DNA from: Promethearchaeota archaeon
GTDB taxonomy: Archaea > Asgardarchaeota > Lokiarchaeia > Sigyniarchaeales > SOKP01
Length of the DNA: 64,000 nucleotides
Direction: 5' to 3'
Assembly: GCA_019057865.1 (NCBI GenBank)
Contig: JAHLWP010000002.1
Location: 33,293 to 97,292 of the forward strand
Shown: positions 34,194 to 38,266 of the stretch, piece by piece
Numbering within the stretch: position 1 is the stretch's first letter
Layout of the letters: each line of letters opens with the position of its first letter
Position numbers and translations under genes: made by a program
The notes under the pieces: model-generated
The model's input: the letters and a program-made list of their open reading frames with translations, nothing else
The model's database searches: none
What the model was told of the DNA's origin: nothing

Positions 34194-35363
34194 ATGTCTC
34201 AGAATCAAATTTTTTGCAAATTTGCATTAATTGGTGATAATTTAGAACTTAAACAGAATGTTACTTTAGAGATTAATAACGAAGGAATGATTTTAAATAT
34301 AGAATATGATGACATTGGGGAAGAAATAGATATTTCGAAGGAAAAAAATGCCTTTATAATGATACCTGGCTTTATCAACTCACATATCCACATTGGAGAC
34401 AGCTTTGCAAAAGAAATAGGATTTAATCAAAATTTAAAAGACATTGTTGCTCCACCTAATGGTATTAAACATAAACTGTTACAAGAGGTACCTAAAGAGA
34501 TAATAGTTGAAGGAATAAAAAATGCGATAAGAGAAATGGTTTCAACTGGAATAACGTGTTTTGTTGACTTTAGAGAACGTAATATAGAAGGTATAAATCT
34601 CTTAAATAATACATTAAAAGGATTTTCAATTAATAATCTAATTTTTGGGCGATTTACCAATCCAGAAGAAATTGAATCTATTTTTAAAGTGGCTGATGGT
34701 ATTGGTTTACCAAGCTACCATAATATTTCCACTGATATAAAAGAAATTCTAAACTATAATAAAGAAAAGTTAAAAAAGAAAATTGCTTGTCATTGTGCTG
34801 AGTTAGAAAGAGATGAAAATTTAATAAATGAGATGATTAATGATGGTATAGTTGATATTGTTATTCATGGAACTCACTTTATTAAAAAGGATTTGGAACG
34901 TTTAAATAAAAATAAATTATCTTTAGTTCTATGTCCCAGATCTAATGGGTATTTTGGAGCTGGATTTCCTCCCATATTGAATGTATTGAAATTAAAAATT
35001 CCAATTTCTTTAGGAACTGATAATTTAATGATAAATAATCCTGATTTGTTTGAAGAAATGCGTTATTTTTACCGAATAGCGAGAGTATTGTGCAATAAAG
35101 ATATTAACGTCGAAATTAGTGCTAAAGATATTTTAAAAATGGTTACAATTAATGCTGCAAGAAATTTTAGAATCGAAAAAAACTTAGGGTCCATTTCAAA
35201 AGGAAAAATGGCTGATTTCTTCCTTATCAATTTAAACGATCCTAACTTCTATTCAATAAATATTGACATAAATAAAATATATCCTATAATTGTGCAGCGT
35301 ACAAAATCAGAAAATGTAAAAAAGACCTATATAAAAGGAGAAATTGTATTTGAAAGAGATTGA
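34194..35363 (+). CDS. Amidohydrolase-superfamily hydrolytic deaminase-like enzyme
   Basis: Metal ligands in canonical order: SHIHIGD (HxH), ACHCAE (H-x-x-E, deaminase-type catalytic Glu), IHGTH and GTDN. Confidence 0.7.
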   Translation: MSQNQIFCKFALIGDNLELKQNVTLEINNEGMILNIEYDDIGEEIDISKEKNAFIMIPGFINSHIHIGDSFAKEIGFNQNLKDIVAPPNGIKHKLLQEVPKEIIVEGIKNAIREMVSTGITCFVDFRERNIEGINLLNNTLKGFSINNLIFGRFTNPEEIESIFKVADGIGLPSYHNISTDIKEILNYNKEKLKKKIACHCAELERDENLINEMINDGIVDIVIHGTHFIKKDLERLNKNKLSLVLCPRSNGYFGAGFPPILNVLKLKIPISLGTDNLMINNPDLFEEMRYFYRIARVLCNKDINVEISAKDILKMVTINAARNFRIEKNLGSISKGKMADFFLINLNDPNFYSINIDINKIYPIIVQRTKSENVKKTYIKGEIVFERD

Positions 35364-36036
35364 AAAATTTGTAAATAAACAACCTTATATTTTGCTAAGT
35401 GCTGCAATGTCTATTGATGGAAAAATAGCTTCAAGAACAGGAGACCCAGAATTATCTGATGAACAAGATTGGAAAGAAGTTCATAAAATTCGTAGTAAGA
35501 TGGATGCAATTATGGTCGGAAAGGAAACAATTCTAAAGGATAACCCAAAATTACATATTAAATTTCATGAGCACAAAGGCTATTATCGAATTGTTTTAGA
35601 TAGTAACCTAACAATACCTTTAGATTCGAATGTTATTGTTTTTCAGCCAGAAATTTATCCCACTATAATTTGTACTACTGAGGGAGTTCCCATTAAAAGA
35701 ATTAGACAATATGAAACATCTAATGTGAGAATTATCCAATCTGGAGTAGGTAAGAAAGTTAATTTAGTAAAACTAATGCCTCTTTTATATGAATTAGGGA
35801 TACATTCAATCTTATTAGAAGGAGGTGGTACTTTAAATTGGAGTTTTATTAAAAACGATTTGATTGATGAAATAAGATTGACAATTGCTCCTTGGATTAT
35901 TGGAGGAAAAGATGCTGTAAGCTTAGTAGAGGGTGAGGGTATTGAAAAAATGATTCAAGCACCCAGATTTAGATTGCTTAATATTAATGATAGAGATAAT
36001 TATGTTGTTTTAAATTACAAAAGGAGCGATAAATGA
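35344..36036 (+). CDS. arfC: Diaminohydroxyphosphoribosylaminopyrimidine reductase (RibD C-terminal domain type; archaeal ArfC-like)
   Basis: PYILLSAAMSIDGKIA and ILLEGGGTLNWSF motifs. The TTG start overlaps the upstream gene by 20 nt. Confidence 0.7.
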   Translation: MYLKEIEKFVNKQPYILLSAAMSIDGKIASRTGDPELSDEQDWKEVHKIRSKMDAIMVGKETILKDNPKLHIKFHEHKGYYRIVLDSNLTIPLDSNVIVFQPEIYPTIICTTEGVPIKRIRQYETSNVRIIQSGVGKKVNLVKLMPLLYELGIHSILLEGGGTLNWSFIKNDLIDEIRLTIAPWIIGGKDAVSLVEGEGIEKMIQAPRFRLLNINDRDNYVVLNYKRSDK

Positions 36037-37136
36037 ATATTAAAGATAATTTTGAACAATTAAAGAATTTAACGTTAAAGAAAATAAAAGAAAAAGTCAA
36101 AGATATCAAATCTCAATTACCTAATAATGAGCAAAAAGTAATTACTTATTCAAAAAATTTCACAATTTCATTGTCAAATTATTGTCAAAACTTCTGTGGA
36201 TATTGTTTTTACAATTTTAGAATTCCTAAGTTAGATGGACAAGGAAATGTAATATTACTTGGAAATGAACAAATGCAAACTCTAATTCAAATGGGAATTC
36301 GTTATAATTGCAAAGAGGCTTTGATAATATCTGGAGAAAAACCAGATAGTTTCAAGGAAGTTAAAGATGAATTAAAAAAGAGAGATTGCAGTGATTTTAT
36401 TAAGTTTGTAAAAGATATTTCTAACTATTTATTAGATTTTAATTTATTACCTCATACAAATATAGGGATACTTACTTTTAACGAATTGAAACTATTAAAA
36501 AATTATAATGCCAGTATGGGTTTGATGCTTGAGAGTACCAGCATGGATTTATTTAAGAAAGGAGGAGTACATGAACATTCACCAGGAAAAGCTCCTGCCA
36601 AACGAATAAACCACATAAATAATGCAGGAAAATTAAAAATCCCTTTTACAACAGGATTATTGTTAGGGATTGGGGAATCTTTAGATGATAGAATAAAAGA
36701 TTTGTATTTAATTAAAGAAATTCATGAAACTTATGGTCATATACAAGAGGTTATAATACAGAATTTTGTAAATAAACCGGGAATTTCGTACCAACCAAAG
36801 AAAGTAATTAAAATAAAAGATATCCTTAGAATTGTTGGAATTGCGAAATTTATTTTTGAAAATGAAATTGCAATCCAAGTTCCACCAAATCTCATATCAG
36901 GATATGAAACAGAATTTATTGAAATGGGAGTGAATGATTTTGGTGGGATATCGCCATTTACTTTAGATTATATCAATCCAGAAAATAGATGGCCCCAGAT
37001 TGATGAATTAAAAAATATATGTGAGTCTAAAAGTTATAAACTCAAAGAAAGGCTTCCAGTATATGATAAATATCTAAAAAAAAATGGTTTTTGTCCAGAA
37101 AATATTAAAAAAACTATAGATAATATAAATTATTAA
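36033..37136 (+). CDS. cofG: Radical SAM FO synthase subunit 1 (CofG-like)
   Basis: CQNFCGYC (Cx3Cx2C) and GLMLES. ATGA overlap with arfC and pairing with a CofH-like gene support the call. The homologous MqnC/MqnE alternative is not excluded. Confidence 0.65.
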   Translation: MNIKDNFEQLKNLTLKKIKEKVKDIKSQLPNNEQKVITYSKNFTISLSNYCQNFCGYCFYNFRIPKLDGQGNVILLGNEQMQTLIQMGIRYNCKEALIISGEKPDSFKEVKDELKKRDCSDFIKFVKDISNYLLDFNLLPHTNIGILTFNELKLLKNYNASMGLMLESTSMDLFKKGGVHEHSPGKAPAKRINHINNAGKLKIPFTTGLLLGIGESLDDRIKDLYLIKEIHETYGHIQEVIIQNFVNKPGISYQPKKVIKIKDILRIVGIAKFIFENEIAIQVPPNLISGYETEFIEMGVNDFGGISPFTLDYINPENRWPQIDELKNICESKSYKLKERLPVYDKYLKKNGFCPENIKKTIDNINY

Positions 37137-38266
37137 TGATAGCTTCTCAGATATTCAACCAGATAAAAACAGAGACAAAGGAAATTTTAAAAAAAGCGTT
37201 AAGTAATGAGGAAATTTCATCTATTGAAGCTTTAAAATTATTGAAAGTTCATGGCAAAGAATTTTTAGCTTTACAATACGTAGCAGATCAAATTTGTTTT
37301 GAAAAAAAGCAAGGTATTATCACTTTTATAATAAATAGAAATATAAACTTTACAAATATATGTTTTCAAGGATGTAAATTTTGTTCATTTAGTTTACCTG
37401 CAAATCACGAAGATGCTTTTTTATTAAGTATTGAAGAAATAAGGAATAAAGTTATTGAAGCGAAAAATTTTAATTGTACTGAAGTATGTATTCAAGGTGG
37501 TATAAATCCTCAATTAAAATTTGATTATTATTTGGAAATTATCAAAACTATCAAAAAGATTGATTCAAAAATTCATATTCATGCTTTTTCTCCTCAAGAA
37601 ATATTCTATATGTCAAAATTATACGGAGATACTGTGGAAAATACATTAAAAGAACTAAAAAAGTCTGGTTTAGATTCAATGCCAGGGACAGCAGCCGAAA
37701 TTCTTGTTGATGAGGTTCGTAAAATCATATGTCCTAATAAAGTTTCCACCTCTCAATGGATTGATATTATCACGTTAGCTCATAAAACTAAAATACCAAC
37801 GACTTCTACAATAATGTATGGACATATAGAGAAGTTGTCTGACAGGATTAAGCATTTAGAAATTTTAAGAGAGATTCAGAAGAAAACCAATGGTTTTACT
37901 GAATTTATTCCATTACCTTTTGTTAAGGAAAAACCAATTTTATCAAAACTTACAAATTATCCATTAAAACCTAGTTATGGAATGGAAGATTTAAAGTTAT
38001 TTTGTGTAGCACGTTTATTTTTAAATAATTATATAGATAATATCCAATGTAGTTGGGTGAAGCTTGGTCCCAAACTTGCTCAAGTTTCTCTAAACTATGG
38101 AGTGAATGATTTTTCAGGCACTTTAATGGAAGAAAATATCTCTAAAAGTGCAGGAGCAGAATTTGGTGAGTATTTATCTCCCGATGAAATGATTGAAATT
38201 ATTAAAGCTGCTGGAAAACGCCCAGCTCAGCGTGATACGCTTTATAATATTATCAGATATTATTAA
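37136..38266 (+). CDS. cofH: Radical SAM FO synthase subunit 2 (CofH-like)
   Basis: INFTNICFQGCKFCSF with a TAATG overlap with cofG. Size and C-terminal pattern are typical of CofH/MqnE-type enzymes. Confidence 0.65.
   Translation: MIASQIFNQIKTETKEILKKALSNEEISSIEALKLLKVHGKEFLALQYVADQICFEKKQGIITFIINRNINFTNICFQGCKFCSFSLPANHEDAFLLSIEEIRNKVIEAKNFNCTEVCIQGGINPQLKFDYYLEIIKTIKKIDSKIHIHAFSPQEIFYMSKLYGDTVENTLKELKKSGLDSMPGTAAEILVDEVRKIICPNKVSTSQWIDIITLAHKTKIPTTSTIMYGHIEKLSDRIKHLEILREIQKKTNGFTEFIPLPFVKEKPILSKLTNYPLKPSYGMEDLKLFCVARLFLNNYIDNIQCSWVKLGPKLAQVSLNYGVNDFSGTLMEENISKSAGAEFGEYLSPDEMIEIIKAAGKRPAQRDTLYNIIRYY

Follow-up and report, generated by a model that had tools for sequence, protein, structure and literature searches.

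A predicted pyrimidine deaminase gene at the head of an FO synthase operon

The DNA analysed here, a stretch of 64,000 nucleotides (nt) that we call the window, is positions 33,293 to 97,292 of contig JAHLWP010000002.1 of a Promethearchaeota archaeon (assembly GCA_019057865.1), and at its positions 34194 to 38266 an amidohydrolase gene heads a unit of four genes whose other members encode the reductase ArfC and the two FO synthase subunits, CofG and CofH. Judging from the context and sequence of this amidohydrolase, its substrate is probably the product of ArfC, so that it would be the 2,5-diamino-6-(5-phospho-D-ribitylamino)pyrimidin-4(3H)-one deaminase of the archaeal riboflavin/F420 route. 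Conserved linkage to arfC, presence in riboflavin operons, gene fusions, co-occurrence and catalytic residues together strongly favour this function, which was one of two proposed in an original prediction made from the letters of the window; the other, a DadD-like deaminase, is disfavoured by the curated model scores, by the position of the protein outside the DadD-like clade and by the occurrence of its family in genomes without CofH. The four genes are as follows.

34194..35363, + strand: predicted pyrimidine deaminase, an NF005552/PRK07213-family amidohydrolase (389 aa; Pfam Amidohydro_1, E 4.8e-47)
35350 (or 35344)..36036, + strand: arfC, 2,5-diamino-6-ribosylamino-4(3H)-pyrimidinone 5'-phosphate reductase, RibD_C type (Pfam RibD_C, E 1.2e-48)
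36033..37136, + strand: cofG, FO synthase radical S-adenosylmethionine (SAM) subunit (367 aa; NF004884, TIGR03550)
37136..38266, + strand: cofH, 5-amino-6-(D-ribitylamino)uracil--L-tyrosine 4-hydroxyphenyl transferase (376 aa; NF005609, TIGR03551)

The list of open reading frames (ORFs) and the junction sequences, in DNA of low GC content (about 29%) whose proteins are closest to ones labelled Promethearchaeota, bear out the earlier description of four + strand genes that overlap at every junction: in ATGA at 36033-36036 the arfC stop codon TGA shares bases with the cofG ATG, which has a GGAG 6 nt upstream of it, and in TAATG at 37134-37138 the cofG stop codon TAA shares bases with the cofH ATG. 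The amidohydrolase and arfC genes also truly overlap, the amidohydrolase stop codon TGA (35361-35363) lying within the arfC reading frame, but the 20 nt first proposed for this overlap depend on a TTG start at 35344 (long form of the arfC ORF, 35344-36036, 230 aa), and its length is probably 14 nt instead. A second in-frame TTG at 35350, 9 nt past a GGAG (35337-35340), gives this 14-nt overlap, which is the commonest one in orthologous loci (e.g., amidohydrolase 6001-7170 and arfC 7157-), and it is probably the true start; a start downstream of the two TTGs is impossible, since by residue 14 of the long form the RibD_C domain has already begun.

The identities of the three partner genes were assessed with curated models. 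Both radical SAM proteins pass the equivalog cut-offs for FO synthase subunits (CofG, 393.4 bits on NF004884 against a cut-off of 209 and 372.5 on TIGR03550 against 213; CofH, 462.1 bits on NF005609 against 426 and 456 on TIGR03551 against 374), so that the pair is CofG/CofH, as first read; the futalosine pathway proteins MqnC and MqnE were excluded, the scores on their models (376 and 354) being below the respective cut-offs of 428 and 435. The ArfC protein passes the ribD_Cterm domain model TIGR00227 (186.8 bits, cut-off 150.15) and falls 0.85 bits short on the archaeal pyrimidine reductase model TIGR01508 (185.6 bits, cut-off 186.45).

Linkage to arfC in other archaea

A scan of one genome per species with a 10-sequence alignment of the amidohydrolase family as query gave 79 loci. 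The order amidohydrolase-arfC-cofG-cofH is found in about 45 Asgard loci (50-84% protein identity) and in one Bathyarchaeia locus, and because it recurs in about 45 independent Asgard loci it is not due to chance. More broadly, the family gene adjoins arfC in about 60 of the 79 loci (Asgard, Bathyarchaeia and Nitrososphaerota), and this adjacency is kept in Jord-, Frey-, Hel- and Hodarchaeota, in Bathyarchaeia, and in Nitrosocaldus and Nitrososphaera; across phyla it is kept at 30-38% identity. In Jord-, Frey- and Hodarchaeota, Thermoproteota/Bathyarchaeia and Nitrososphaerota the family gene occupies position X of riboflavin operons of the type ribB-ribC-ribH-arfA-X-arfC-creatininase (arfB); in one of these, L052, every gene was confirmed by NCBIfam. 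Several of the riboflavin-operon loci are without cofGH within 6 kb, so that arfC, and not the radical SAM pair, is what constantly accompanies the amidohydrolase gene. In Methanobacteriaceae the family gene is not linked to arfC and adjoins carbamoyl-phosphate synthase (carAB-like) genes.

Two kinds of gene fusion were found. The 636 aa protein P0148 (L106, 8001-9911), from a Promethearchaeota metagenome-assembled genome, joins the amidohydrolase to RibD_C; cofG and cofH come after its gene, and in the protein database it is a singleton. The 542 aa protein P0213 (L129, 6001-7629; 232 bits on NF005552) joins a creatininase (the ArfB fold) to the amidohydrolase and is present on 3 contigs from at least 2 metagenomes, where the adjoining genes are unannotated. 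The linkage to arfC is conserved in riboflavin and FO operons alike and is accompanied by these two kinds of fusion.

This context bears on the second function proposed, in which the amidohydrolase would scavenge 5'-deoxyadenosine, the inhibitory by-product of CofG and CofH (or 5'-methylthioadenosine, MTA, or S-adenosylhomocysteine, SAH), in the manner of DadD. The family gene occurs in riboflavin operons that have no radical SAM gene in their vicinity, and it is found fused to the gene for ArfC or for a creatininase; both facts argue against such a role, as do the family placement and the distribution given below.

Family placement, residues and predicted structure

The best NCBIfam model for the amidohydrolase is NF005552 (PRK07213, "chlorohydrolase"), which it matches at 262.5 bits (E 5.5e-78) over model positions 10-378 of 382; its Pfam matches are Amidohydro_1 and Amidohydro_3 only. 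It is a divergent Asgard member of this family, 27-39% identical to the non-Asgard members with which it was compared. A HMMER search of 1.84 billion representative proteins gave 189 clusters at E<=1e-30, nearly all of them 360-420 aa long.

In subtype III enzymes of the amidohydrolase superfamily the HxH motif is on strand 1, a His on strand 5 is followed by HxxE, a second single His is on strand 6 and an Asp is on strand 8, and the glutamate of HxxE is typical of the deaminases of this superfamily. The window protein has the (beta/alpha)8 barrel and the residue set of the subtype III COG0402 deaminases, including H200 and E203 of the ACHCAE motif that the original prediction had picked out. 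In an alignment of 38 diverse family members H64, H66, H200, E203, H225 and D276 are invariant, and so are D69, G90, K92, R127, E128, R153, C247, N277 and R369; R249 is near-invariant (93% of members), and the window protein has all of these. The last ten residues named differ or are missing in DadD-like proteins: in the substrate pocket the family/DadD-like pairs are D69/M, R127-E128/Y-F, C247/N, N277/G and R369/S, and a PPxGxKH loop that the family has is found in none of the DadD-like proteins compared. From sequence, the additional conserved Lys and Arg residues would suit a phosphorylated substrate.

DadD (MJ1541, NF005557) and MtaD/TM0936 share with the amidohydrolase their superfamily, their fold and the HxH / H / HxxE / H / D set, a likeness that speaks for the DadD-like reading, and yet on the curated models the window protein is far from either: its score on the DadD model is 90 bits, against a cut-off of 522 and with a match to the C-terminal half only, and on the MtaD/SAH deaminase model (NF012037) it has 40.5 bits, against a cut-off of 779. 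A phylogenetic tree of 47 rows (IQ-TREE quick search, with SH-aLRT support only), for which DadD-like paralogues were taken from methanogen and Asgard genomes, separates a family clade of 30 rows from a DadD-like clade of 16 rows with 98% SH-aLRT support. The window protein is in the family clade, together with both fusion proteins and with methanogen, Nitrososphaerota, Bathyarchaeia and other Asgard members, among them members that exceed the NF005552 cut-off (L075, 435 bits; L052, 356; L066, 318). The DadD-like proteins are therefore not only different in loop and pocket residues but form a clade of their own, and in methanogens they are paralogues of the family: each of the 11 methanogen genomes to which the DadD model was applied has one family gene and one DadD-type gene, so that both kinds are kept side by side. 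Taking the pocket residues, the model scores, the tree and the gene context together, we regard a DadD-like function as most unlikely.

Other known deaminases were also tried. The aminofutalosine deaminases (MqnX-type, NF006269; PDB 7LKJ/7LKK) are COG0402 structural neighbours that serve a pathway with the CofH-like proteins MqnE and MqnC; the amidohydrolase scores 79.7 bits on their model against a cut-off of 320, and its partners are CofG and CofH, not MqnC and MqnE. The deaminase domain of RibD/Rib2 (PF00383, cytidine-deaminase fold) has no match in the amidohydrolase, which would be its functional analogue and not a member of its family. The guanine deaminase model TIGR02967 was rejected as well (78.5 bits, cut-off 375.4).

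An AlphaFold2 model of the amidohydrolase (pLDDT 94.1, pTM 0.94) was compared with solved structures by Foldseek. The top 30 matches are mostly COG0402 deaminases and the related triazine hydrolases AtzA and TrzN (TM 0.71-0.85), and the nearest solved structures, at a TM of about 0.8 and 13-22% identity, are MTA/adenosine, guanine, isocytosine, 8-oxoguanine and aminofutalosine deaminases and AtzA; no member of the NF005552 family was found among the solved structures searched. Could the protein then deaminate some other purine, pterin or pyrimidine, such as guanine, a pterin or an isocytosine-like base, its linkage to cofactor genes being regulatory or historical? The presence of guanine, isocytosine and 8-oxoguanine deaminases among its nearest structures is consistent with this, as is that of pterin genes (mptA and a dihydropteroate-synthase-like gene, below) in the neighbourhood. 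Against it, the guanine deaminase models give 61-79 bits where their cut-offs are 351-375, the linkage to arfC persists across phyla at the low identity given above and is hardened by the fusions, and the family is present in every methanogen genome sampled (251 of 251, below), which fits an essential cofactor step; we think such a substrate unlikely.

Phyletic distribution

All 251 Methanobacteriota genomes sampled (M. jannaschii is not among them) have a family member, in 246 of them over the NF005552 cut-off. Among the control genomes the family is found at E<=1e-30 in 4 of 4 archaeal and 0 of 10 bacterial ones, and at E<=1e-60 in M. jannaschii, H. volcanii and M. acetivorans; the S. acidocaldarius control has a family match and no CofH match at E<=1e-90.

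The Asgard archaea were surveyed in 101 genomes of at least 85% completeness, the counts being uncorrected for relatedness. The numbers of genomes with each gene are as follows.

Amidohydrolase family: 45 of 101 genomes
arfC: 47 of 101 genomes, 44 shared with the amidohydrolase
cofH: 45 of 101 genomes, 44 shared with the amidohydrolase
ribH: 19 of 101 genomes, 18 shared with the amidohydrolase
arfA: 15 of 101 genomes, 15 shared with the amidohydrolase

Co-occurrence profiling agrees with the gene order, the amidohydrolase being accompanied by arfC in 44 of its 45 Asgard carriers. Although cofH accompanies it just as often, which would suit a scavenger of the radical SAM by-product, there are also carriers of the family without CofH, namely S. 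acidocaldarius (at the threshold above) and the Asgard genome G271, which has the family gene, arfC, ribH and arfA. A second Asgard genome, G283, from the same family as the window genome, has a separate ribC-ribH-arfA-arfB cluster (L132, G283:C7:60000-66704) without amidohydrolase and arfC genes, and its sole amidohydrolase-arfC pair is in an FO operon on another contig. Because the riboflavin cluster has neither gene, this one pair must serve both branches, and such an arrangement is what one expects for two enzymes of a shared trunk.

An FO-only operon in the source genome

The source genome (G000) is 99.7% complete and has the amidohydrolase, arfC, cofG and cofH genes. ArfA (PF05165 profile), RibA (PF00925 profile) and RibH (TIGR00114) were not detected in it, and RibB, RibC and ArfB were not found in it with home-made profile hidden Markov models built from related operons; its one creatininase was considered as ArfB and rejected, as it is IolN (517 bits). 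A RibD-type deaminase was likewise not found in this genome, where the only match to the query is a ComEB-like dCMP deaminase, nor was a DadD-type gene or a second COG0402 deaminase, the only weak relative being HutI (473 bits). Since the genome has neither lumazine nor riboflavin synthase, the operon serves only FO/F420 in this lineage, and the organism is probably a riboflavin importer. The same pattern, cofH present and ribH and arfA absent, is seen in 27 of the 45 Asgard carriers, which implies that many Asgard archaea are riboflavin auxotrophs that have retained FO synthesis.

The lack of ArfB raises another function for the amidohydrolase, that of the formamide hydrolase of the ArfB step, alone or as a bifunctional enzyme that also deaminates, in lineages without a creatininase-type ArfB. 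Relatives in its superfamily group do hydrolyse formimino groups, and HutF is among its model matches. We nonetheless consider this function very unlikely: the source genome lacks ArfA too, so no formylated intermediate is expected; the family gene shares operons of the L052 type with a creatininase gene and is fused to one in P0213, which points to two separate steps; and the HxxE glutamate that is typical of deaminases is invariant.

For the supply of the ring-opened pyrimidine, one gene next to the operon is relevant.

33109..34053, - strand: mptA, GTP cyclohydrolase IV (FolE2/MptA type), divergent neighbour of the amidohydrolase gene (TIGR00294, 267.9 bits against 220)

MptA is the only recognisable GTP cyclohydrolase in the source genome, where it is present in a single copy. 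Its gene adjoins the operon divergently in most Promethearchaeota loci, and in two relatives (L036, 4950-5906, and L042, 4917-5873, both + strand) it is co-directional and 82 nt upstream of the amidohydrolase gene; whether it should be counted with the four-gene unit is uncertain. In the Asgard families f5 and f19 (L133-L136) mptA does not adjoin the operon. The idea that the adjacency tracks the loss of ArfA is unsupported, as G283 keeps both ArfA and the adjacency and the f5/f19 genomes have neither. It is conceivable, though we doubt it, that in the Asgard genomes lacking both the riboflavin branch and GTP cyclohydrolases II and III the pyrimidine trunk has been retained for FO/F420 alone and is fed by some other route. 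Most specifically, the MptA-type cyclohydrolase might provide not only the pterin but also the ring-opened diaminopyrimidine, and so serve methanopterin and deazaflavin synthesis alike; alternatively, the diaminopyrimidine may come from another cyclohydrolase or by cross-feeding from a partner.

Proposed reaction and relation to known systems

As we picture it, the product of the first gene would be a COG0402 deaminase-type amidohydrolase, a TIM barrel with a mononuclear metal site, that takes the 2-amino group off the ArfC product and so yields 5-amino-6-(5-phospho-D-ribitylamino)uracil. Dephosphorylation would come next, after which CofH and CofG would condense the product with tyrosine to give FO, the chromophore of F420. 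The four genes are presumably co-transcribed as one transcript, on which the overlapping stop and start codons may tie the levels of both trunk enzymes to those of both FO synthase subunits. In this scheme the amidohydrolase would stand in, without homology, for the domain of cytidine-deaminase fold that bacterial RibD and yeast Rib2 have. We infer that reduction precedes deamination: as in fungi, the enzyme is expected to act on the reduced (ribityl) form, according to the M. jannaschii ArfC work as it is cited in PMC5397151.

The N-terminal domain of RibD (EC 3.5.4.26) and yeast Rib2 act at the same pathway step as that predicted for the amidohydrolase. A further likeness to RibD is that the amidohydrolase is encoded beside the reductase and in P0148 is fused to it in the same domain order (deaminase, reductase). 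The difference is in fold, cytidine deaminase (PF00383) in RibD and Rib2 and TIM-barrel amidohydrolase here, so that the two are analogues and not homologues.

According to Rodionova et al. 2017 (PMC5397151), the RibD deaminase domain is missing from archaea, and a candidate for the missing enzyme, "PyrD", was put forward by Osterman, Overbeek and Rodionov in 2010 because of its clustering on the chromosome and its co-occurrence, as cited in PMC5397151, where the prediction is said to remain "to be tested"; its SEED role is 'Pyrimidine deaminase archaeal predicted'. HVO_2483 and MJ0699 (Q58110) were later named as candidates, with a request for experiments (Pfeiffer and Dyall-Smith 2021, PMC8305020). 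The statement in the original prediction that this deaminase is unassigned in archaea is accordingly right as far as experiments go, since our literature searches for an assayed archaeal deaminase of this step found none, but a candidate was already in print (PMC5397151, PMC8305020). We take PyrD (MJ0699/HVO_2483) to be the NF005552 family, because the family gene is the only unassigned one in these riboflavin operons and both named organisms hold a member at E<=1e-60. The published candidate and the window amidohydrolase share the proposed step and the kind of evidence for it (clustering and co-occurrence with riboflavin genes); they differ in that the latter is not in a riboflavin operon but comes first in an FO operon with cofGH, and its genome is without the riboflavin branch. 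The proposal made here is therefore a well-supported rediscovery of an idea printed in 2010 and 2017, to which this locus adds breadth.

Several observations weigh against assigning this deamination to the window protein. Its 262.5 bits are below the curated NF005552 cut-off of 294, which only 8 of the 45 Asgard carriers exceed, while methanogen members score 435-503 bits. Within Asgard archaea its co-occurrence with cofH is as tight as that with arfC (44 of 45 each), so the Asgard data alone cannot separate a pyrimidine deaminase from a DadD-like enzyme. In the source genome neither ArfA/ArfB nor RibA, which should make the substrate of ArfC, was found, which leaves the pathway incomplete as drawn, and this genome has no separate DadD-type gene, a circumstance in which a side activity of the amidohydrolase on 5'-deoxyadenosine is possible. 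Finally, no assay of any NF005552 family member was found in the literature searched.

Neighbouring features

Three further features of the window flank the operon.

34137..34188: spacer before the operon, with a perfect 26-nt tandem duplication of ATTATTATATAGATAGAAAATTAAGA (two copies; sequence repeat without strand)
38296..40161, - strand: Glu/Leu/Phe/Val-dehydrogenase-like protein with a C-terminal CBS pair, 621 aa (Pfam ELFV_dehydrog_N, ELFV_dehydrog, CBS)
40280..41722, - strand: dihydropteroate-synthase-like (DHPS-like) protein, MJ0301 type (TIGR00284, 259.6 bits against 256.65; Pfam Pterin_bind, PterinBD-DUF4346)

Each copy of ATTATTATATAGATAGAAAATTAAGA contains a TATA-like TTATATA, and the second copy stops 5 nt short of the operon ATG. 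In the closest relative (L005) the orthologous spacer holds one diverged copy and no duplication; going by its sequence, the repeat could be a duplicated promoter or regulator site.

The dehydrogenase-CBS gene is convergent with cofH and is kept there in nearly all Promethearchaeota loci, and the DHPS-like gene is conserved in related loci; the whole arrangement mptA(-), amidohydrolase, arfC, cofG, cofH, dehydrogenase-CBS(-), DHPS-like(-) is found in nearly all Promethearchaeota, Thor-, Hermod- and Hodarchaeota loci. With mptA on one side and the DHPS-like gene on the other, this is a pterin/deazaflavin cofactor neighbourhood.

On the far side of mptA the window has a gene for an E2-type ubiquitin-conjugating enzyme (30534-31061, + strand; Pfam UQ_con, E 5.5e-25) that shares 20 nt with a JAB/MPN metalloprotease gene (31042-31878, + strand; Pfam JAB, E 7.3e-15), the two forming an Asgard ubiquitin-type modifier pair. 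The ORF that follows (31908-33077, + strand, 389 aa) has several hydrophobic segments, a Ser/Thr/Arg-rich linker and a Cys-rich, zinc-ribbon-like C-terminal end, and no Pfam or NCBIfam match was found for it.

Implications

The deamination is a gap in the archaeal riboflavin/F420 route, one for which we found no experimentally shown enzyme, and the phosphatase step is another (PMC8305020). The NF005552 family makes a strong and cheap biochemical test case for the deaminase, given its context in four archaeal phyla, two fusions, its universality in the methanogens, its separation from DadD and a confident structural model with basic residues specific to the family. What is new here is an FO-only operon in a genome where ArfA, RibA, ArfB, RibB, RibH and RibC were not found, and such an FO-only trunk, kept by many Asgard genomes without a known first enzyme, bears on the flavin and F420 supply of syntrophic Asgard archaea.

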